From positions 1,888,001 to 1,952,000 of the forward strand of contig OY762911.1 in the NCBI GenBank assembly GCA_963666565.1: 64,000 nt of DNA. The letters run 5' to 3'. The notes beneath the pieces are model-generated. The model did no database searches and was not told where the DNA came from. It worked only from the letters and a program-made list of their open reading frames with translations. Origin of the DNA: Thermoanaerobaculia bacterium. Its GTDB lineage: Bacteria; Acidobacteriota; Thermoanaerobaculia; Multivoradales; Multivoraceae. Below, one piece after another: positions 8,915-17,103 of this stretch. Numbering within the stretch: position 1 is the first letter of the stretch; every line of letters begins with the position of its first letter. The translations under genes were made by a program, and so were the position numbers.

Positions 8915-9340
8915 ATGAAGTTCCAGCGAATCGTCCTGACGGCGGCGGCCCTCGCCCTGGCGCTCGCCGTTCCGCTCGCCGCCCATCACGCCTTCTCGGC
9001 CGAGTTCGACGCGGACCGGCCGCTGCAGCTTCGCGGCAAGGTGACGAAGATGGAGTGGATCAACCCCCACGCCTGGATCCACCTGGAGGTCGCGAACGAC
9101 GACGGCACGTTCACCGTCTGGATGGTCGAGGGCGGCACGCCGAACACGCTCGCCCGGCGCGGCTTCACGAAGAGGTCGCTCCTGCCCGGGACGGAGATCG
9201 TCGTCGACGGCTACCAGGCGAAGGACGGCTCGAACAAGGCGAACGGCCGCGACCTGACCTTCCCGGACGGCCGCAAGCTGTTCATGGGTTCCTCCGGCAC
9301 GGGCGCGCCGCGCGACGGCCGGGACCCGACCGAGCAGTAG
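8915..9340 (+). CDS. DUF6152 family protein
   Basis: AHHAFSAEFD...GKVTKMEWINPHAWIHL...WMVEGGTPNTL; RBS GAGGAG. Confidence 0.9.
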   Translation: MKFQRIVLTAAALALALAVPLAAHHAFSAEFDADRPLQLRGKVTKMEWINPHAWIHLEVANDDGTFTVWMVEGGTPNTLARRGFTKRSLLPGTEIVVDGYQAKDGSNKANGRDLTFPDGRKLFMGSSGTGAPRDGRDPTEQ

Positions 9341-9365
9341 CCGCCGCCGGGTGCCCGACCCGCCG

Positions 9366-9437
9366 CTGGGTGCGCGGGTCTCTCTGACCCGCCGCGGCCG
9401 CCGCAGGCGGCCGGAAGCACGCGCCGGCCGGAGGCCG
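9366..9437. repeat. REP-like palindromic element copy
   Basis: CTGGGTGCGCGGGTCTCTCTGACCCGC...GCCGCCGCAGGCGGC, matching the dispersed family in this window. Confidence 0.75.
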
Positions 9438-9479
9438 CATCCGCCTTCGGCGCCGGATGAGGGGTTGGCGCCGGGCCTT

Positions 9480-9612
9480 GTTGGTCGCCATGCACAGTGG
9501 GCACGAAACGCCCTGCCTATTCGCCGCGCGCGGGGAGCGACCCAGCGCGGTGTGTCGACTGTTGTATTCGGCAGGAGACCCGGCTCGCAGGCCCACTGCG
9601 TTGACAACCAAC
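9480..9612 (-). ncRNA. Putative structured ncRNA, copy 1 (133 nt, family unknown)
   Basis: 5' GUUGGUUGUCA pairs with 3' UGGCGACCAAC, CGCAGUGGGC with GCCCACUGUG, CCUGCC with GGCAGG; apical GGG-UCGCU-CCC. G-U pairs favour the minus strand. Homologous to 14091-14226. Confidence 0.75.
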
Positions 9613-9618
9613 GGCGGG

Positions 9619-9648
9619 AAGCTACCGTGCGGGTCGCTGGCGCGTCAA
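9619..9648 (-). promoter_or_regulatory. Sigma70-type promoter for ncRNA copy 1
   Basis: TTGACG (9648-9643)-N18-TAGCTT (9624-9619)-N6-G at the first base of the closing stem. Confidence 0.7.
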
Positions 9649-9733
9649 ACCGGCTTCGCCCGCGGCGCGGCGTCTCCGCGGCGCGCGGCTCGGCGGCGTT
9701 TTCCGGTTGCCGGCCGGCCGGGCGCCATGGAGA

Positions 9734-10507
9734 CTACGGCGTCGGGATCAGGCTGGCCACGCCGGCCAGGGCGGCCAGGAAGGCCGTTGTCGCCGCCCAG
9801 AGGGTGCCGGCGATCAGAAAGCCCTTGCGTTCGGAAAGCCGAAACACGGCGGCGGCGCCGAGGCCGAGCAGAGCGACATGCCAGACGGTGAAGGGCGTGA
9901 TCCTCATCAGGACCGCTTCGAGCGCCCAGTTCCCGGTGGGAAACAGCAGGTTCAGGCCCGGCACGATCACCGCGTCCGCCAGTTCGGTGGGCGATGCGAT
10001 CCCCTCCGGGCCGCGGCCGCGCGAGAGCAGCGCGCTGACCAGACCGCCGAGCCACGCAACGACGCCTAGATGGACGGCGAGCGAGAAGGACTGTCCGAAG
10101 CTCCCTTCACCGCGGAACGCCGTTACCAGCAGCCAGACGACGAGCGCCTGGAAGAGCCAGGCGCCGATCAGGCTGAAGAGCCCGAACACGGTTCCCCCCA
10201 CGAGGATCACCGCGTTCAGACCGGGAAGCGCGTCGGCCATGTCCGCGAGAAGCGGTTCATCCGACACGCTTGGCCATGTCGCGAGGAACTGGACGGCGCT
10301 CAGGGCGAGGAGCAGCGCCGCGGCGCCGGCCCAGGGTCGATGCTCGCGGACGATCGCGAAGCTGCTTCGAGGGGAGACGACGATCCCGGCCAGGACCTTG
10401 AACCATGCCTGCCGCTCGGTTTCGGCGCCGCCGGCGTATGCGATCGGCTCGGCGCTTTCCGGACGGACGGCGGCTTCCTCTTCCATGCGCGTCGGATCCT
10501 CCACCAT
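9734..10507 (-). CDS. Yip1 family membrane protein
   Basis: LAGIVVSPRSSFAIVREHRPW, about 5 TM, ITPFTVWHVALLGLG; RBS AGGAGG before ATG 10507. Confidence 0.8.
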   Translation of the reverse strand: MVEDPTRMEEEAAVRPESAEPIAYAGGAETERQAWFKVLAGIVVSPRSSFAIVREHRPWAGAAALLLALSAVQFLATWPSVSDEPLLADMADALPGLNAVILVGGTVFGLFSLIGAWLFQALVVWLLVTAFRGEGSFGQSFSLAVHLGVVAWLGGLVSALLSRGRGPEGIASPTELADAVIVPGLNLLFPTGNWALEAVLMRITPFTVWHVALLGLGAAAVFRLSERKGFLIAGTLWAATTAFLAALAGVASLIPTP

Positions 10508-10778
10508 GACGATTCCTCCTGCCTGCCGGCGGCCTCGCTCACCGACACGGTGACGGCGGTGGCGGCCGGCGCGCCGACCCCGGTCCATCGACCGGTTCTC
10601 GATCCGCGGACCATACTGGCACAGGGGCGACGGCGGACGGGCCGCCGGGCGCCGGCACGCCGGCGGCGGCCCGTCGACCGCCGTCGACGTGGAGCGCGCC
10701 TGATCGAAGCGAGCGCTCCGGCCTCTTCACCAGGGAGCGCGAAGGTCCGTCGTTGCCGCCATGCCGGTTCCGGTTCGG

Positions 10779-11558
10779 TTACGCCGGCAGGAGTCGGGAC
10801 GCCGTGGCGACCGACGCCGCGGCGAAGGCCGTCGTTGCCGCCCAGTAGACGGCCGCGAGCAACCAGCCCTTGCGCCGGGGCAGCTCGAACACCTGGGCCG
10901 CCCCTACGGCGAGCAGTACGACGAACCAGATCGTGAAGGGGTTGACGCTGGCGTAGAAGACGTTGAGGGCCGCGTTCTCGCCGGCCAGCAGCAGGTCGAG
11001 GCCCATCTGCGCCTGCAGGTCCAGCGGCGACCGGATCGCTTCGAACCCGCGGAGGTGGAGGAGGAGGAAGTTGGTCCAGTCCTTGACGTGAAGGACCAGA
11101 GCCAGATGGACCGTCAACGAGAGGGACTGGGCAAAGCGGAGTTGCCCCTGGAGCGCGATTGCCAGCAGCCAGACGAAAACCGTCTTGAGGACGAGTCCGA
11201 TGGCGAGGACCAGCGGGCCGGCTGCCATCGCCAGCCAGCGCGCCGCTCCGGCTGTCCGCTCGACCTGCGCCATCATGAGGTCGACCTGCTCCGGGCTGTC
11301 CGGCATCGTCTCCGTCAGTTGAGCCCGCGTCGCGTGGTTGTTCAGTGGCGCCGAGGCCGAGGCCAGGGCGGCGGTACCCGCCGCGAGCACAAGGAACGGC
11401 GCCAGCCACGGGCGGCGGCGGTGGATGACCTCGAAGCTCCGTCGGGGCGACGCGAAGATGCCGACCAGCGCCTCGAGCCATGCGTGCCGGCCTGGCGAGT
11501 CTTCGCCGCCGGTCTCGGCATGGCCTTCACCTTCGATGCTGCCGAAGCGCCCAGTCAT
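10779..11558 (-). CDS. Yip1 family membrane protein (paralog)
   Basis: LVGIFASPRRSFEVIHRRRPWLAP, VNPFTIWFVVLLAVG; ATGA overlap with the ABC ATPase stop. Confidence 0.82.
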   Translation of the reverse strand: MTGRFGSIEGEGHAETGGEDSPGRHAWLEALVGIFASPRRSFEVIHRRRPWLAPFLVLAAGTAALASASAPLNNHATRAQLTETMPDSPEQVDLMMAQVERTAGAARWLAMAAGPLVLAIGLVLKTVFVWLLAIALQGQLRFAQSLSLTVHLALVLHVKDWTNFLLLHLRGFEAIRSPLDLQAQMGLDLLLAGENAALNVFYASVNPFTIWFVVLLAVGAAQVFELPRRKGWLLAAVYWAATTAFAAASVATASRLLPA

Positions 11559-12340
11559 TCCGTGCTCCTGTTCCCGATCCAGGAGAGGCGGGAGAACCTC
11601 TCGCGTCTGGAGATGCCGAGAATGAGGTTCTCAAGCCGCCCGGCGCCGTCGTCTCCTTCGGCGGCCGGCAGTTCGCGGAATTCCTCGCGGGAGCACGACA
11701 GGAGGACCTTGCCGGCCCTGATGACGGCGATGTGGGTCGACACGCGCTCGACGTAGTCGAGCATGTGGGAGGTCAGGAAGACGGCCGTGCCCTGGTCGGC
11801 CATCTGCTGCAGGATCGACATGACGGTGCGCGCGCTCAGGGCGTCCATCCCCTCGAACGGCTCGTCGAGGAACAGGACCCTGGGCGCGTGGAGGGTCGCC
11901 GCCGCCAGACGGATCTTCTTCCTCATGCCGTGAGAGTAGGTCGTGATCGGCCGCTTGCCGGCTTCTTCCAGGTCGAAAACCGTGAGCGCCTCGTCCGTCC
12001 GCTGCCCGGCGTCCTCGCGGCTCAGGCCGTAGATCCGGGCGTACGAGAGCAGCAGCTCTTCGCCGGTCAGGCTCTCGAACAGGACGCTGTGGTCCGGCAC
12101 GATGCCGAGTTGCCGCTTGAGTTCCGCGTCGTTTACGTCCACCGGCTTACCGAGAAGCCGTACCGTGCCCTTCGTGGGCGTCACGACTCCGGTCAGCATC
12201 GACCAGGTCGTCGTCTTGCCGGCGCCGTTGGGGCCGACGAAGCCCAGAATCTGCCCCTCCCGGACCTCCAGGTCGACGCCGTCGACGACGACGTTGCCCC
12301 CGTAGGACCGGGTCAGGTTCTCTGCCTTGATTGCTTCCAT
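11555..12340 (-). CDS. ABC transporter ATP-binding protein (exporter type)
   Basis: Walker A GPNGAGKTT, signature YSHGMRKK, Walker B LFLDEP, H-loop LTSH; RBS AAAGGAA before ATG 12340. Confidence 0.95.
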   Translation of the reverse strand: MEAIKAENLTRSYGGNVVVDGVDLEVREGQILGFVGPNGAGKTTTWSMLTGVVTPTKGTVRLLGKPVDVNDAELKRQLGIVPDHSVLFESLTGEELLLSYARIYGLSREDAGQRTDEALTVFDLEEAGKRPITTYSHGMRKKIRLAAATLHAPRVLFLDEPFEGMDALSARTVMSILQQMADQGTAVFLTSHMLDYVERVSTHIAVIRAGKVLLSCSREEFRELPAAEGDDGAGRLENLILGISRRERFSRLSWIGNRSTE

Positions 12341-12432: not shown

Positions 12433-14024
12433 CTAGTGCGGAGGGTCCTTGAGCAGGAGTTCGTGCGTCCGCGACTCGATTTCGCGCCGTTGGCGCGCCG
12501 TCGACGGTCGCCACGCCAGGGCCGAAAACGTGAGAGCGACGCCGGCGGCGATCGTGGCCATGAGCCCTCCGTTCCCGGGTCGCTCCAGTATCCGCGAGAC
12601 CAGGATCGCGAGTACGAGGAACGCCATTATGGGGAGGGTGGCGACAAAGCTCACCCCCAGGTTCTCTACCTCGAACTCCGTGGCGCCTCCGATCCTGCGC
12701 TTGGGCCAGTACAGTTGAACCAGGCCGTAGACCGCGTCGGCGACCAGCAAAAGGGCGGCGACCAGGGTTACAGCCAGAACTGAGAGTGTCCAGTTGCCCG
12801 GGCCGAAGTGAGCCAAACCGACGCCTGTCGCCAGAACGACGACCGGGATCGCCAGCAGCGCAGGTGCCCTGGCCGGTGCCCGAAAGATACGGAACGGCCT
12901 TAGCGGCAATGCGAGGGACTCACGCCAGACCTGGCAACTCGGAGGCGGTTTCTCGGTCCGAACGCCGTTGAGGAGGATGACCGTTACCAGAGCGGCGGTC
13001 ATCAGGCCGAGTACAGGGTCGACGGTGGTGTAGGTGGCGTACGCGAGGCAGATGACGTAGCACCATCTGACCCCCTTGGCGCGACATAGGCACTCGAGTT
13101 CGACGAGTGTCAGACAAGCGCCCGGCGACAACCGGCGACAACGGCGCAGGAGTCCCGCCAGGGCGTAACCGTCGAGGCCGTCCGCCGGTCTCCACCCGGG
13201 CGAGAGAGGAATTGGCGGAGCAGGAGTCGGTACTCGATCCAGGCGGTCGCCGCGAGAAGACACAGCAGAACTCCCAGTCGCAGGATGTTCGGTGCGAGCG
13301 CCCCGGGCGAGTCGATGATGGCGGCGAGGAGACCGGTAGGGGTGTAGCCCAGCGCGACGAGAACCTCCGCGTCGCGGACCGAAGCGGCGACCGCTTCGAG
13401 CTCGGCCTCGCCGTCCAGGACGCCGATGCCGACGCGGAGGGCCTGAATCGCCGCGACGATCAGGATGAACAGGCCGACCAGGCCGATCGTGCTTTCGACC
13501 AGCCGGTCCACGGTCAGGATGAGAATCGCTCCAAGCCGCCCGAGCAGCAGTGCCGTGGCTGCCAGACCGACGGTCGCCAGCAGGAAATCGACCAGCCCCT
13601 GGGGTCGGGTCGCGAGCAGGTAAAGCGCCGCGGGTCCGAGCCCGATCAACCAGTAGCCAGCCAGACTGAACCCGAGCCGCAGCATGTAGAGGTCCCTGTA
13701 GGCGGCTGGGAGCGGGAGGAACGGCTCTATGTCCAGGAGCCAGTTCACCGGAAGGCGCAGGACCACCTGGGCCAGCAACCACAGGAGAGTTGCAACGCCG
13801 GTGGCGAGGTTCAGCAGGTTGCGGCGTAGCGGTTCGTCCTCGATGCCGAAGAGAAGGGAGAGCAGCGGCACCGTCGCGGCAGTGGCAACGACAAGGTAGA
13901 TCAGGGCGATGCCGACGGCAACGACTTGCGTCTGATCGCGTCGCTTCAGGGCGCCGGGAAGAGCTAGCCTACCCAGTGTCAGCAGCAGGTCCGCCCGGCT
14001 TCCGGGCTTCGTCAGTACGGCCAT
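12433..14024 (-). pseudogene. ABC exporter permease-like membrane protein split by a single-base frameshift (real, or an assembly error)
   Basis: The N half (14024-13110 ORF) and C half (end of the 13782-12433 ORF) both align to the intact paralog 2186-3799. Adding one base to the G run at 13161-13163 restores TPLAGLLRR (paralog LPLAWILRR). Confidence 0.8.
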
Positions 14025-14090
14025 TGGATCCTCGTGTCGCGGCGTCCAGTTCTGGAAGGCGGGCAGGCGCCTGGACTGGCGGCGGGCCCG

Positions 14091-14226
14091 GCTGGTTGCG
14101 GAGCACAGAGGGAACGAGACCCCCCGCCGCCTCGCCTGACGAAGGGAGCGACCCTAGGTCCCGGGGCGACGGCCAAGTCCGGCAGGGGATCCGAGTAGCG
14201 GGCCCACTGCGCCTTTGGCAACCAAC
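14091..14226 (-). ncRNA. Putative structured ncRNA, copy 2 (136 nt)
   Basis: GUUGGUUGC/GCAACCAGC, 13-bp GGAUCCCCUGCCG/CGGCGGGGGGUCU, apical GGG-UCGCU-CCC. Collinear with 9480-9612 apart from one 3-nt indel. Confidence 0.75.
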
Positions 14227-14232
14227 GGACGG

Positions 14233-14262
14233 ACGCTAGCGCGCCGGAGTGGCGTCCGTCAA
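14233..14262 (-). promoter_or_regulatory. Sigma70-type promoter for ncRNA copy 2 and possibly the transporter genes
   Basis: TTGACG (14262-14257)-N18-TAGCGT (14238-14233)-N6-G, the same geometry as 9619-9648. Confidence 0.7.
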
Positions 14263-14401
14263 ACGCACTTGCCCCGTAGAACGGGAGAGGAACGATGGCC
14301 CCGAAGGAGCCGCGTGAGATCGACCCGCTGACGGGTGCTTCGGTCTCCTTCGTTGCCATCGAAGCCTCTCCACGGTGTTCTACGGTGGTTGAATACCCGG
14401 C

Positions 14402-14695
14402 CTACTTGCAGAAGACCAGGGCAATTGGCGCGTACGCTCCGCCGATGGCGAGACCGGCGCCGCCGGTTGCGGCGCCAACACCGAGGGCGACGAAACTGAA
14501 GCCGAGGACGGCGGTGATGCACCCCAACTTCCCTCCTCCGGTGGTTGCCGCGAGAAGCGGTTCACTGGCGCGCTCGATCTCGGCCGGGGTACCGAAGTCC
14601 GGGATCCCAAGGCGAGAACCGTTGTCGCCCACCGCTGGAGCGAGAGCGAACACGAAGGTGAGGAGAAGGGTTGCGGCTACTGCTTTCTTGGACAT
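14402..14695 (-). CDS. Bacteriocin-like precursor C: Sec signal + GG-type leader + 43-aa hydrophobic two-Cys core
   Basis: MSKKAVAATLLLTFVFALAPAVG signal; DFG...ASEPLLAATTGG|GKLGCITAVLGFSFVALGVGAATGGAGLAIGGAYAPIALVFCK; RBS GAAAGGAA. Confidence 0.78.
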   Translation of the reverse strand: MSKKAVAATLLLTFVFALAPAVGDNGSRLGIPDFGTPAEIERASEPLLAATTGGGKLGCITAVLGFSFVALGVGAATGGAGLAIGGAYAPIALVFCK

Positions 14696-14767
14696 GTCGT
14701 TCCTTTCAGGTTTGGTTCAGAGTGTGTCGGTTGTTGGGTTGGGTTCTTCAGGACAGGCGGATCGCGG

Positions 14768-15103
14768 TCAGGCGAACATCGCGCAGGCGACTCCGACGAC
14801 GCCGAGGCCGATGCCGACAGGCGCCAGGACGCCGCTCAGGGCCAGGGCCAGGCCGGCTCCCGCGGCGGCGCCGCAGGTCGCCTCGACCGCCGGCCCCGAA
14901 CCCGTGGTCAGGGCAAGGCCCTCGGCGCTCATGCGATGCTGGCCGAAGTCCGTGACGCGCGACGGAGGCGACGCCGTCTGCACGGCATGGTCTCCGGCGG
15001 TGCCGAGTCGATCAGCTGTCTGGTCGACCGGGCTGTCCGGTTGACCGGCAGATGCGGCCATCAGTGCGCCGCACGTGAGAATGGAAAGAAGAGTCTTCGT
15101 CAT
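14768..15103 (-). CDS. Bacteriocin-like precursor B: Sec signal + GG-type leader + 42-aa hydrophobic two-Cys core
   Basis: MTKTLLSILTCGALMAASA signal; DFG...MSAEGLALTTGS|GPAVEATCGAAAGAGLALALSGVLAPVGIGLGVVGVACAMFA; RBS AAAAGGAG. Confidence 0.78.
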   Translation of the reverse strand: MTKTLLSILTCGALMAASAGQPDSPVDQTADRLGTAGDHAVQTASPPSRVTDFGQHRMSAEGLALTTGSGPAVEATCGAAAGAGLALALSGVLAPVGIGLGVVGVACAMFA

Positions 15104-15163
15104 GGGTGGTGCTCCTTTTCTTCGATTGGTTTTGTTTTCGGAAGAGATCGCAACTGCGCCGAG

Positions 15164-15484
15164 CTAGAACGGCACCGGACAGGGGAACGGGATCGGGAAC
15201 GGAGTCGGTAGCGGCATGGGCAGGGGAGGCCTGGGCCACGGGATCGGCATCGGACAGCCGGGCTGCGGAATGCAGCCGCAGGGCCAGTAGACGGCCAGTT
15301 CGACGTGTTCCGGCGCGATGTCCAATGCGCCGAGCGCGTAGCCGGCCGGCGCCTCGAACGACTCGAGATCCCATCCGGCCGCGAGTTCGTCGCCGCCGGA
15401 AACCGGCGCTTCGCCGGTGGTCGGGGTCGCCATCGCCGCGCCGGCGAGGAAGAGGGTTGCAAGGAAGGCGATGCGGTACTTCAT
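15164..15484 (-). CDS. Secreted precursor A: signal + acidic pro-region + Pro/Cys-rich C-terminal peptide
   Basis: MKYRIAFLATLFLAGAAMA signal; tail WPCGCIPQPGCPMPIPWPRPPLPMPLPTPFPIPFPCPVPF; RBS GAAGGAG; ATGA overlap with the C39 stop. Confidence 0.8.
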   Translation of the reverse strand: MKYRIAFLATLFLAGAAMATPTTGEAPVSGGDELAAGWDLESFEAPAGYALGALDIAPEHVELAVYWPCGCIPQPGCPMPIPWPRPPLPMPLPTPFPIPFPCPVPF

Positions 15485-16101
15485 TGTGGGTTTGCTCCTT
15501 CAGGAGTTGTGGGTTGTGGTGAAACGGACGGCGTTCCCGCCGTCCGCGAGATCGGTGAGGGGCCGCCGGTGAAGGCGAGGACGATGCCGTCCCAGGAGCG
15601 GTCGAACGTTCGTGGGCTCATCCGCAGGCGGCCGATGGACGGATCGTCGACGACGAGTTCGTCGCCGGCGGTGCGGATGACGACGAAGTGGTCGCCGTGG
15701 ACGTGGGCGATCGCCGGGAGCGGAATCTCGCCGAGGCGGTCGATCGGCAGGTGGAAGCCCTGGCTCGTCACGCCCCGCCGCTCGGCGGCTCGCTTGATCG
15801 CCAGAAGGCTGGTGCCGTCCGGTCCGGTTCCGGTGGCGGCTTCGAGTTCGGCGAGCGTCGAGTCGCCGACGCCCCAGTGGTCGAGGACCATCTTCAGCGC
15901 GGCCGGTCCGCAGTCGGTACGGTTCTGCTGGCGAACGACCTCGCCCTCGGCCGACGCCGACGGGTCGAGCGACGCGGCCCAGGCGAGCCGGTCGATCGTC
16001 GGTCCGACGGCCCGGACCGCGACCGTCGCGAGGCCGGCCGCGAGCACCAGGCCGGCGGCGGCGATGTGCCGCCGGCGAACCCTGAGTCGCTCAGCGCGCA
16101 T
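15481..16101 (-). CDS. Stand-alone C39 family cysteine peptidase with N-terminal signal/TM anchor
   Basis: QQNRTDCGPAALKMVL (catalytic Cys), GTSLLAIKRAAERRG, LPAIAHVHGDHFVV (His), VDDPSIG (Asp), WDGIVL. No ABC domains. Confidence 0.92.
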   Translation of the reverse strand: MRAERLRVRRRHIAAAGLVLAAGLATVAVRAVGPTIDRLAWAASLDPSASAEGEVVRQQNRTDCGPAALKMVLDHWGVGDSTLAELEAATGTGPDGTSLLAIKRAAERRGVTSQGFHLPIDRLGEIPLPAIAHVHGDHFVVIRTAGDELVVDDPSIGRLRMSPRTFDRSWDGIVLAFTGGPSPISRTAGTPSVSPQPTTPEGANPQ

Positions 16102-16597
16102 CGTTCGCGGCCTCCAGAAAGGAACGCCACGCGGTTTCCGGGCGTTCTCCGGTGACGACGGCGCGGACCCGGGACCGCCCGTCTACCAGGAACACGAGCG
16201 GTACGTGGATGACGCCGAAGCGCCTGGAGAGGGCGGCGTCCGGGTCGGCGACGGTGTGGGCGATGCCATCGACCTTCGGCGCTTCCTGGCCGGCCCCGGC
16301 GACGACCGCGATGAGATCGAAGGACTCGCCCCCGACCTGCGCCATGCGCCGCAGCGTCGTGATCGTGCGGTCGCAGTTGCCGCAGCCGGCCCTGGCGAAG
16401 ACGACGACCCGCGGCCGTTCTCGGGAGACCGGCAGGAGTTCGCCGTCCGCGAGTCCGGGCAGGGCCGGGAACGCCGCGCCGACCTTGGGGCGCTGAGCCT
16501 CTCGCGCGGCCAGGCTGGACTGGAACCAGATCAGGCCACCGACCGGGACGGCGACGGCGACGACGACCGCGGCGGCGGCCAGCCGGCGACGGTTCAT
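16091..16597 (-). CDS. Membrane-anchored thioredoxin-like/redoxin (CxxC) protein
   Basis: N-terminal TM; PKVGAAFPAL, VVVFARAGCGNC, VADPDAALSRRFGVIHVPLVFLVD. Confidence 0.85.
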   Translation of the reverse strand: MNRRRLAAAAVVVAVAVPVGGLIWFQSSLAAREAQRPKVGAAFPALPGLADGELLPVSRERPRVVVFARAGCGNCDRTITTLRRMAQVGGESFDLIAVVAGAGQEAPKVDGIAHTVADPDAALSRRFGVIHVPLVFLVDGRSRVRAVVTGERPETAWRSFLEAANDAR

Positions 16598-16917
16598 CGT
16601 CCGCGCCCCTGGCCGAGGCCGGCCGCTCCGGCGCGCGTTCCCGGCCGCGCCGGGGCGTAGAGCATGGAGACGAGCGGCGCGGACCGCGGCCCCAGCAGGC
16701 GGAAGGCGCGCGTCAGGCGCGCTTCGAGTGCCCCGGCCGGCGACTCGGAGAGCCGGGGGTTCCAGCCGCGCACCCGGGGGCGGGCGCGCCGCCCGGCCCC
16801 GGCCTGGATCGAGGCGGCGCCGAGCGGATTCGGAACGTTGCCGGCGGCGTCCGGCCTGTCGAGACGGGGCCGCGAGGCAGGTTGACGGAGAGTCGAGGCA
16901 AGGTTCGGGGAGGTCAT
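16594..16917 (-). CDS. Hypothetical protein, probable first gene of the peptide operon
   Basis: RBS GGAG before ATG and ATGA coupling to the redoxin start. No recognisable motif. Confidence 0.4.
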   Translation of the reverse strand: MTSPNLASTLRQPASRPRLDRPDAAGNVPNPLGAASIQAGAGRRARPRVRGWNPRLSESPAGALEARLTRAFRLLGPRSAPLVSMLYAPARPGTRAGAAGLGQGRGR

Positions 16918-16993
16918 TGTCCGCTCCAGGTGCTTCAGTCGAGGTCGGCGCCGTTGGAGTTCGGCTGCCGCGTGTATCGACTAAGACGCAAAT

Positions 16994-17027
16994 GGCCTCC
17001 GGAACCCGGTATCGGGTTCCGGAGGCC
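16994..17027 (-). terminator. Perfect 15-bp inverted repeat; probable terminator of the SNF2 gene, or an operator
   Basis: GGCCTCCGGAACCCG-gtat-CGGGTTCCGGAGGCC, followed by ATTT on the minus strand. Confidence 0.5.
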
Positions 17028-17103
17028 CTCTGGAGGCCGGCGGGCTTCTACCGTTCGCGCAGTGCTCGGCGGGTCAGAAAACCCGCGTACCCGGCGCCCG
17101 GCG

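Follow-up and report, generated by a model that had tools for sequence, protein, structure and literature searches.

A candidate cassette of peptides with signal-like N-termini, double-glycine-type leaders and a stand-alone C39 peptidase in Thermoanaerobaculia

Introduction

How can a peptide precursor be tagged for export twice, by what looks like a Sec signal peptide at its start and by a double-glycine leader further along the chain? Double-glycine (GG) leaders are cytoplasmic export tags that are removed by a peptidase domain forming part of the exporter, and their consensus reads L(-12) S(-11) x x E(-8) L(-7) x x I(-4) x G(-2) G/A/S(-1). The question is raised by pepA and pepB, two adjacent genes on the minus strand of a 64,000-nucleotide stretch of a Thermoanaerobaculia genome (contig OY762911.1 of assembly GCA_963666565.1, positions 1,888,001 to 1,952,000), which we call the window and in whose coordinates all positions are given unless another locus is named. 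We consider it probable that their products are Sec-exported, bacteriocin-like hairpin peptides that would be closed by a disulfide, freed of their leaders in the periplasm by the C39 peptidase of a neighbouring gene, and handled by ATP-binding cassette (ABC) and Yip1-domain proteins for self-protection or release.

Results

Anatomy and conservation of pepA and pepB

The open reading frames (ORFs) are those of pepA (14768-15103, minus strand, 111 amino acids) and pepB (14402-14695, minus strand, 97 amino acids), and the coordinates, quoted strings, core lengths, GxxxG motifs and cysteine positions given for them in an initial annotation of this DNA are all correct. The pepA precursor is composed of a putative signal (residues 1-20), a variable linker, a leader (about residues 56-69) and a core (residues 70-111, window 14771-14896), and pepB likewise of a putative signal (1-21), a linker, a leader (38-54) and a core (55-97, window 14405-14533). 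Judged by eye and without a predictor, both N-termini are signal-like (MTK followed by LLSILTCGALMAASA in pepA, MSKK followed by AVAATLLLTFVFALAPA in pepB); the region is conserved and is missing from eight relatives described below. Cleavage is predicted after G68-S69 in pepA (TDFGQHRMSAEGLALTTGS/GP, where the slash marks the cut) and after G53-G54 in pepB (PDFGTPAEIERASEPLLAATTGG/GK), leaving cores of 42 and 43 amino acids, respectively. Both cores are Gly/Ala-rich and hydrophobic, with one charged residue in pepA (E) and two in pepB (K), and each has two GxxxG motifs (GAAAG and GIGLG in pepA, GAATG and GLAIG in pepB) as well as two cysteines close to its ends (core positions 8 and 38 in pepA, C77 and C107; core positions 5 and 42 in pepB, C59 and C96).

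In a collection of 5.8 billion proteins, pepB has 33 relatives at E <= 0.01, all of which share L48 (position -7), G53, G54, C59, C96 and a GAYAP motif. The same collection holds only four relatives of pepA, and tblastn finds this gene in all 13 related loci; G68, G70, C77 and C107 are invariant in an alignment of 18 sequences. Mean pairwise identity by region amounts to 72% for the signal, 45% for the linker, 65% for the leader and 70% for the core of pepB, and to 40%, 26%, 45% and 69%, respectively, for pepA. The linker is thus the least conserved region in both families, with the signal-like N-terminus, leader and core all scoring higher, and it is supported that the conserved product is the hydrophobic part.

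The double-glycine-type site reported initially for both proteins is conserved in both families and stands in the proper register. The family consensus of pepA, LSDxVLAxTAG[TAS]/GP, fits L(-12), S(-11), L(-7) and G(-2), and the pepA of the window itself has S(-11), L(-7), G(-2) and S(-1). In the pepB family the leader reads GExLLAxxxGG/, with E at -10 and with L(-7) and G(-2)G(-1) invariant. From the DFG..TTG motif that the two precursors had been said to share, the leader and GG part stands (L48 and G53-G54 in pepB, G68 and G70 in pepA), and the DFG part is kept in neither family. Beyond the leader, the proteins are as dissimilar as had been stated: homology between them is undetectable (hhalign probability 7%), and we rejected it. 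A lipoprotein signal in pepA (LTC/G) was also dismissed, as its Cys is not conserved.

To describe this architecture, we used a filter built after the peptides had been seen, which asks for a signal-like N-terminus, Gly/Ala-rich and hydrophobic last 45 residues, a Cys in the last six residues and a Cys 25-52 residues from the end. Applied to all six frames of the 4,786,144-base genome, this post hoc filter returns exactly two ORFs, pepA and pepB; their architecture exceeds chance. As a separate observation, pepA carries a signal peptide of the type found in the neighbouring gene pepC (MKLRIAFLS...) in four loci (L002:5214-5573, L005:7572-7931, L007:7572-7931 and L011:7573-7932), in place of its usual one, which suggests recombination between the two genes.

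Relatives of the pepB core with classical leaders

A search with the pepB profile among 1.84 billion representative proteins gave 21 matches at E <= 0.001, of which we fetched 13, leaving out seven long low-complexity proteins and one match already known. Three of these 13 and five further sequences make up eight relatives of the pepB core that have no signal peptide. Instead, a leader of 15-28 residues that ends in GG stands directly before a core with the Cys...GAY.P...Cys pattern, and five of the eight are short proteins of 59-60 amino acids that come from different sources and have their Met at the identical place. The classical leader on these relatives indicates that the GG site and the core form a usual pair of leader and product, and that the signal peptide and linker of pepB are a module added in front.

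The neighbouring C39 peptidase

Two genes upstream of pepA, at 15481-16101 on the minus strand, lies the gene for a stand-alone C39 cysteine peptidase of 206 amino acids (Pfam Peptidase_C39, PF03412; E = 1.4e-29, 103 bits versus a cut-off of 22). Its closest solved relatives are LahT150 (6mpz, 6.9e-13), which is an excised double-glycine protease domain, PCAT1 and ComA. The catalytic residues C64, H138 and D153 and a Gln six residues before the Cys align with those of LahT150 and PCAT1, and the roles of this Cys/His/Asp set and of the oxyanion Gln are known from the literature on PCAT1 and ComA. Q58, C64, H138 and D153-P154 are invariant in seven anchored stand-alone homologues with adjoining peptide genes.

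Ahead of the C39 domain, the N-terminus is Arg-rich and then forms a single hydrophobic segment, and all seven anchored homologues similarly begin with basic residues, after which comes one hydrophobic segment. By the positive-inside rule, this arrangement would place the C39 domain outside the cytoplasm. The protein is the sole C39 match in the genome at E <= 0.001, so that no fused peptidase-transporter was found with this query. It is itself no fusion of the PCAT/AMS kind, as the 206-amino-acid ORF stops after the C39 domain and NHLM_micro_ABC1 scores 81.6 bits versus a cut-off of 853. Among periplasmic-type models in NCBIfam, the FapD equivalog (NF058616) reaches 44.8 bits versus a cut-off of 330 (8.9e-12) and FilB 23 bits versus a cut-off of 475 (4.4e-05).

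Structure predictions

The initial annotation had envisaged a heterodimer of disulfide-closed helical hairpins; a helical hairpin is modelled with confidence for pepB. AlphaFold2 with the 33-row alignment of pepB (mean predicted local distance difference test, pLDDT, of 71.5) yields helices at residues 3-21 (signal), 38-53 (leader), 57-77 and 80-96, of which the last two form a hairpin with a block pLDDT of 86-89. With C59 about 19 residues and C96 about 17 residues away from the turn, the two would face each other side by side. The model of pepA is poor (pLDDT 55), with helices at 3-18, 60-66, 71-89 and 94-110; in this model, C77 and C107 around the turn at residues 90-93 would likewise face each other. 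A complex predicted from the two cores (pepA 70-111 and pepB 55-97) scored 0.02 in a run for which controls were not made. Foldseek with the pepB model returned nothing from the PDB at E <= 0.001, and the best five matches were unrelated membrane proteins (E ~7-8).

Distribution of the cassette

The whole segment from a flanking SNF2 helicase gene to the Yip1 genes is syntenic in all 13 related loci, which come from metagenome-assembled genomes labelled Candidatus Multivorans, Holophagales or Thermoanaerobaculia; the second Yip1 gene was found in nine of them. Identity to the window across these loci is highest for the ABC ATPase (90-93%) and the SNF2 helicase (80-93%), followed by the C39 peptidase (73-80%) and a thioredoxin-like protein (64-71%), and lowest for pepB (45-66%), pepA (38-52%) and the membrane proteins mem1 (45-62%) and mem2 (36-64%). 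This fast divergence of peptides and permeases compared to the conserved ATPase and helicase fits a diversification of toxin and immunity. In three other species of the genus (L017-L019), the pairs have cores that cannot be aligned to those of the window, yet the leader is kept and the C39 peptidases are 68-78% identical. Unalignable cores are also found at a second locus of the same genus (L044 and L100).

Across the phylum, 54 of 301 sampled genomes (a tally that counts G152, a genome flagged as unpublished) have a C39 match at E <= 1e-10, and most of these matches are long frames of the transporter type. We fetched ten loci with short frames (L044-L053). In L044, L046, L047, L048, L049 and L051, the C39 gene is followed by one or two small ORFs with a signal-like N-terminus, a canonical leader (examples are ELLSEEDLALVVGG, ELLSDADLLAVTGTG, LSDSEMERVQGTG and LTPAEMGALTGTG) and a Gly-rich core that has Cys close to each end, and full matches to the double-glycine consensus occur among these distant cassettes. 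Membrane proteins and an ABC ATPase come next, with a Yip1 protein detected in four of the six (L044, L047, L049 and L051); L046-L049 and L051 belong to other acidobacterial families. The other four short-frame loci have a truncated C39 (L045), a fused transporter (L050), a lipoprotein-type C39 (L052) and an anchorless C39 (L053).

By record titles, two cassettes lie outside the Acidobacteriota, L102 (labelled Ignavibacteriales) and L106 (labelled Eubacteriales). Both consist of a thioredoxin, an anchored C39, a single Cys peptide with signal and GG site, one or more permeases, an ATPase and a Yip1 protein; in most lineages, the peptide genes stand in tandem pairs. Of 80 loci collected with an alignment of the anchored C39, the peptide filter matches 36 of the 47 with a stand-alone peptidase, about 30 of the 47 being kin from one clade and not independent, and none of the 31 in which the C39 frame continues for at least 700 residues (taken as fused to a transporter) or of the two with broken or truncated frames. 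The filter misses real cases such as L106. The double leader, which had been called unusual, would rather be the defining feature of this wider cassette, with the C39 domain anchored outside the cytoplasm.

Two further variations were seen within the genus: some genomes carry the entire cassette a second time, in diverged form and with other peptides (L044, G186:C1:369000-385500; L100), and one genome retains only a truncated C39 remnant (L045).

Other members of the gene cluster

On the minus strand of the window, the compact cluster runs in the order thioredoxin, C39, pepC, pepA, pepB, a 377-nucleotide non-coding stretch, mem1, mem2, ATPase and two Yip1 genes. The first gene (16091-16597) encodes a TlpA-like thioredoxin-fold protein with an N-terminal membrane anchor and a CxxC motif (CGNC). 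Its match to Pfam Thioredoxin_2 is borderline (3.2e-06, 27.9 bits versus a cut-off of 27), the Redoxin and AhpC-TSA families match more weakly, and every NCBIfam equivalog is far below its cut-off. The gene lies directly 5' of the C39 gene in all 13 related loci, and the same slot is occupied in L044 and L100. Its counterparts in L102 and L106 match AhpC-TSA at 3e-21 and 7e-22, respectively (1e-16 to 1e-22 for AhpC-TSA and Redoxin together).

The ORF of pepC (15164-15484, minus strand) encodes a small secreted Pro/Cys-rich protein of 106 amino acids. It is matched by tblastn in 11 of the 13 related loci, lacks a conserved GG site and was not seen in the distant cassettes. Its sequence has a conserved stretch, ELAVY.PCGC.P.PGCP.P.PWP, and a Pro-rich tail. 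In one locus, about 1.6 kb separates pepC from pepA (L084:4930-6585), where there seems to be an insertion.

Downstream of the non-coding stretch, mem1 (13110-14024) and mem2 (about 12433-13170; matched by tblastn in all 13 related loci, with an approximate start that overlaps the end of mem1) encode polytopic membrane proteins with no Pfam match, all on the minus strand like the genes that follow. The nearest Atlas clusters of mem1 are annotated as 'putative ABC exporter' (PF16962/PF16949; 0.95-0.96), which marks it as a putative ABC-exporter permease. The ABC ATPase (11555-12340) is of the DrrA/ABC-2 type (Pfam ABC_tran, 3.3e-29; NCBIfam drrA subfamily, 7.9e-64 and under its cut-off). It is followed by two Yip1-domain membrane proteins, the first of them YknW-like, at 10779-11558 (Pfam Yip1, 4.4e-10, 40.1 bits) and 9734-10588 (2.5e-15, 57.2 bits), both above the cut-off of 28.6 bits. 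Against the YknW family model of NCBIfam (NF052650), the Yip1 proteins score 65.6 and 69.6 bits and stay under the cut-off of 110. The mem1-mem2 permease pair is tandemly duplicated in two related loci (L001:8685-11337 and L002:6304-9553). In L051 (3764-7309), the ATPase gene is flanked on either side by two genes for small permease-like proteins of about 206-246 amino acids. Each of the four has RRELDL or RRELEF at its C-terminus, and these permeases give sub-threshold ABC-2 matches.

Elements between and after the operons

Directly 3' of the pepB stop codon, a long stem-loop (14272-14386, minus strand; fold z = -3.49) has a core stem of 14 base pairs with arms at 14348-14361 and 14293-14306. 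One position of this stem is changed from A-T to C-G on both sides in L001, L006, L009 and L010. It has no T-tract and was not called by a terminator scan, and it may either terminate transcription without such a tract or form an end that stabilises the RNA. Consensus scans of 13800-17100 gave neither a sigma-70-type promoter nor an intrinsic terminator.

Just beyond it lies E1 (14077-14264, minus strand), a promoter-like motif with a folded leader RNA 5' of the ABC/Yip1 operon. E1 spans about 190 nucleotides and is near-invariant in all 13 related loci while the flanking proteins are 36-66% identical, and it shows no codon-phase bias. It begins with a conserved TTGACG-N18-TAGCGT (14233-14262), which the consensus promoter scan did not call, and continues with about 150 nucleotides of RNA that adopt a rod-like consensus fold with 47 predicted pairs and many G-C/G-U exchanges. 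Rfam has nothing for 13900-14500 at E <= 1; a covariance model finds the element in six of six other genomes of the genus and in none of 54 further genomes from the class. Peptide genes and ABC/Yip1 genes hence appear to form separate transcription units.

A 115-amino-acid ORF between pepB and mem1 (14012-14359, minus strand) was rejected although its frame is open throughout the 13 loci: codon-phase bias is absent from the variable sites (26/70, 23/70 and 27/71), the nucleotides are read in differing frames across loci, and the region includes the stem with the compensatory change.

A paralogue of E1, called E2 (9466-9650, minus strand; 70% identity to E1 over 193 nucleotides), sits after the last Yip1 gene and shares with E1 the motif TTGACG-N18-TAGC.T ahead of a rod-like folded RNA of about 150 nucleotides. 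In relatives, E2 precedes a gene for a 387-amino-acid secreted protein (e.g., L001:13848-15011) that is 79-96% identical among the 12 other loci and whose family has about 25 paralogues elsewhere in this genome (33-61% identity). Because this gene is missing at the corresponding place in the window (9340-9466), E2 is orphaned here; the idea that E2 is a stand-alone small RNA was dropped in view of its position in relatives.

Discussion

A possible route of peptide maturation

The reading that we consider probable can be spelled out as a sequence of five steps. First, the signal peptide would route each precursor through Sec and then be removed. Second, the C-terminal 42-43 residues would form a helical hairpin with both ends in the periplasm, as modelled for pepB and extrapolated to pepA. 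Third, the anchored TlpA-like thioredoxin could close this hairpin by a disulfide that joins the two core cysteines, one near the start and the other at the end. Fourth, the anchored C39 peptidase, whose catalytic residues are in place and whose domain would face the periplasm, would recognise the amphipathic LSxxxLxxxxG[GSTA] leader and cut after G-S in pepA and after G-G in pepB. Fifth, the separately promoted ABC-2-type transporter and the two Yip1/YknW proteins may extract the peptides from the producer membrane, serving self-protection, release or both, by analogy to YknWXYZ and SDP and to other bacteriocin clusters with Yip1 proteins. Permeabilisation of membranes by the peptides, as the initial annotation had supposed, may be their activity.

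Comparison with known systems

Like class II bacteriocins and microcins processed by C39-ABC proteins (PCAT1, ComA and LahT; microcin V type), the system has Gly at -2, a hydrophobic residue at -7 and the same catalytic residues. Unlike in PCAT systems, the peptidase stands alone as an N-terminally anchored protein of 206 amino acids, the search of the genome gave no fused transporter, and the cluster has an ABC system of the ABC-2/DrrA type that is accompanied by Yip1 proteins. Class II bacteriocins with GG leaders are further matched by the unmodified, Gly-rich and hydrophobic product with its disulfide (here predicted) and by the classical short leader of some pepB-core relatives, and differ in that no signal peptide and variable linker stand before their leader. 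Two-peptide bacteriocins of class IIb, such as lactococcin G and plantaricins EF and JK, are defined by the synergy of their two peptides. pepA and pepB resemble them in that they are neighbours, encode small peptides that are unrelated to each other and have GxxxG motifs, and come as tandem pairs in most lineages, but each core here has a Cys pair, export would proceed via Sec and some cassettes have a single peptide; membership in class IIb is that of a candidate.

The peptide toxin SDP of Bacillus subtilis derives from SdpC, which has a Sec signal and is processed by SdpAB. The cited passages on SDP describe a 42-amino-acid disulfide peptide against which YknWXYZ, including the Yip1 protein YknW, protects (PMC4887032). 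The hydrophobic peptide of 42 amino acids, the single disulfide (predicted here) and the combination of a Yip1-family protein with an ABC transporter all recur in our cassette, where protection would be the analogous role; in contrast, SDP has no GG leader or C39 peptidase, YknYZ is MacB-like with a membrane-fusion protein (PMC4887032), and the YknW family scores of the window proteins stay below 110. Yip1 proteins have also been noted in clusters of leaderless and circular bacteriocins (PMC11580447).

Bacteroidetocins (class IIf, Bacteroidales) are likewise made by diderms and, in the cluster descriptions cited, have a GG-leader peptide with a mature form of 42 amino acids and four Cys, a thiol oxidoreductase gene and a transporter with a fused peptidase (PMC6671954). 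The diderm producer, GG leader, 42-amino-acid product with disulfide bonding (predicted here) and thiol oxidoreductase gene are thus common to both systems, while bacteroidetocins differ from pepA and pepB, according to the same descriptions, in a 15-amino-acid leader without signal peptide, a fused peptidase-ABC transporter and the lack of an ABC-2/Yip1 set (PMC6671954). No sequence similarity between bacteroidetocins and pepA or pepB was found.

A precedent for the location of the peptidase is FapD of the Pseudomonas Fap amyloid system, which the cited passages present as a C39 protease exported by Sec and acting in the periplasm on a substrate still unclear, with the comment that periplasmic C39 peptidases are yet to be characterised (PMC5557850). 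An exported C39 peptidase that acts in the periplasm on Sec-exported partners is what we propose here, too. Compared to pepA and pepB, Fap substrates are described as having no canonical GG leaders and as leaving through the FapF channel (PMC5557850), and the peptidase of the window scores far below the FapD cut-off (44.8 versus 330).

Alternative readings

The best surviving alternative, though an unlikely one, is that the mature hairpins are resident small membrane proteins, either accessory or regulatory subunits of the ABC/Yip1 complex or envelope proteins of the glycine-zipper type, and that the C39 peptidase and thioredoxin serve only their biogenesis. The cores do equal transmembrane hairpins in hydrophobicity, the cassette sits on the chromosome and is passed on vertically within the genus, the cluster has no outer-membrane exit route, and the permeases co-vary with the peptides in a manner compatible with a physical complex. 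Weighing against this reading are cores that are unalignable between species of one genus whose C39 peptidases are 68-78% identical (L017-L019), and relatives in which the same core bears a classical export leader; moreover, no glycine-zipper family of Pfam matches at E <= 0.1, and an ABC transporter with Yip1 proteins is a known protection set against peptide toxins.

It is improbable that the GG-like motif is left uncut by the neighbouring C39 peptidase, with the peptides merely secreted by Sec or inserted into the membrane and with pepC or a protein encoded elsewhere as the true substrate. Cleavage at the motif is a prediction, the residue before the predicted cut in pepA is not Gly in most relatives, and the target of FapD is similarly unclear, with Fap proteins described in the passages cited as lacking canonical sites (PMC5557850). 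Against this stand the L(-12), S(-11), L(-7) and G(-2) register that is maintained across unrelated cores, the invariant G-x-G or GG of the two families, the co-occurrence of the peptides with anchored stand-alone and not with fused C39 peptidases, and the absence of a conserved GG from pepC, which is not seen in distant cassettes. That the peptides are secreted signals akin to ComC or BlpC pheromones, or subunits of a surface fibre matured by a FapD- or FilB-like periplasmic peptidase, is very improbable: pheromones also use double-glycine leaders and the C39 peptidase weakly matches FapD and FilB, but these scores are far under the cut-offs, Pfam and NCBIfam scans revealed no sensor kinase, response regulator or outer-membrane channel in the cassette, and the cores are hydrophobic hairpins without amyloid-type repeats.

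Several points nevertheless weigh against Sec-exported, bacteriocin-like hairpin peptides that are cleaved in the periplasm. What we observe are sequence features, catalytic residues, gene linkage and a modular leader, from which we infer every biochemical step, and both the Sec signals and the outward topology of the C39 domain were read from the sequences by inspection. The residue before the cut in the pepA family is S, T, A or R, which is unusual among C39 substrates. No bacteriocin family model of Pfam or NCBIfam matches pepA or pepB, including the Bacteriocin_IIc/Blp family (PF10439), for which there is no Pfam match at E <= 0.1, and the Atlas neighbour 'Blp class II bacteriocin' reaches only 0.82, a level often attained by shuffled sequences. 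The post hoc nature of the peptide filter and the kinship among the stand-alone loci count on the same side, as does our assumption that the signal-less relatives of the pepB core are exported by fused peptidase-transporters. Finally, the cluster lacks both a component for export across the outer membrane and a small gene dedicated to immunity, and within the genus the cassette is inherited vertically at a single site of the chromosome, a pattern less typical of bacteriocin loci.

Implications

In a full-text search of the literature, which did not extend to supplements, we found no description of natural peptides that combine a Sec signal with a double-glycine leader, nor of an anchored stand-alone C39 peptidase with such substrates. 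We tentatively raise the broader possibility that the cassette represents a widespread and so far undescribed route to peptide toxins, in which Sec export is followed by stapling through a thioredoxin, a cut by an anchored C39 peptidase at the outer face of the membrane and extraction from the membrane by ABC-2/Yip1 proteins. If true, this would amount to a new class of bacteriocins in several phyla and to a new cellular site for C39 leader peptidases. In the cassette, a Sec signal would precede the double-glycine tag and the peptidase would lie outside the cytoplasm, and its novelty would lie in this relocation of double-glycine peptide maturation beyond the cytoplasmic membrane. Should this be confirmed, leader peptides would be matured independently of a dedicated ABC exporter, and extracytoplasmic C39 peptidases would gain assigned substrates. 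An anchored stand-alone C39 gene beside a TlpA-like gene would then also serve as a mining rule for peptide genes that current family models miss, in uncultured Acidobacteriota as well as in other phyla.

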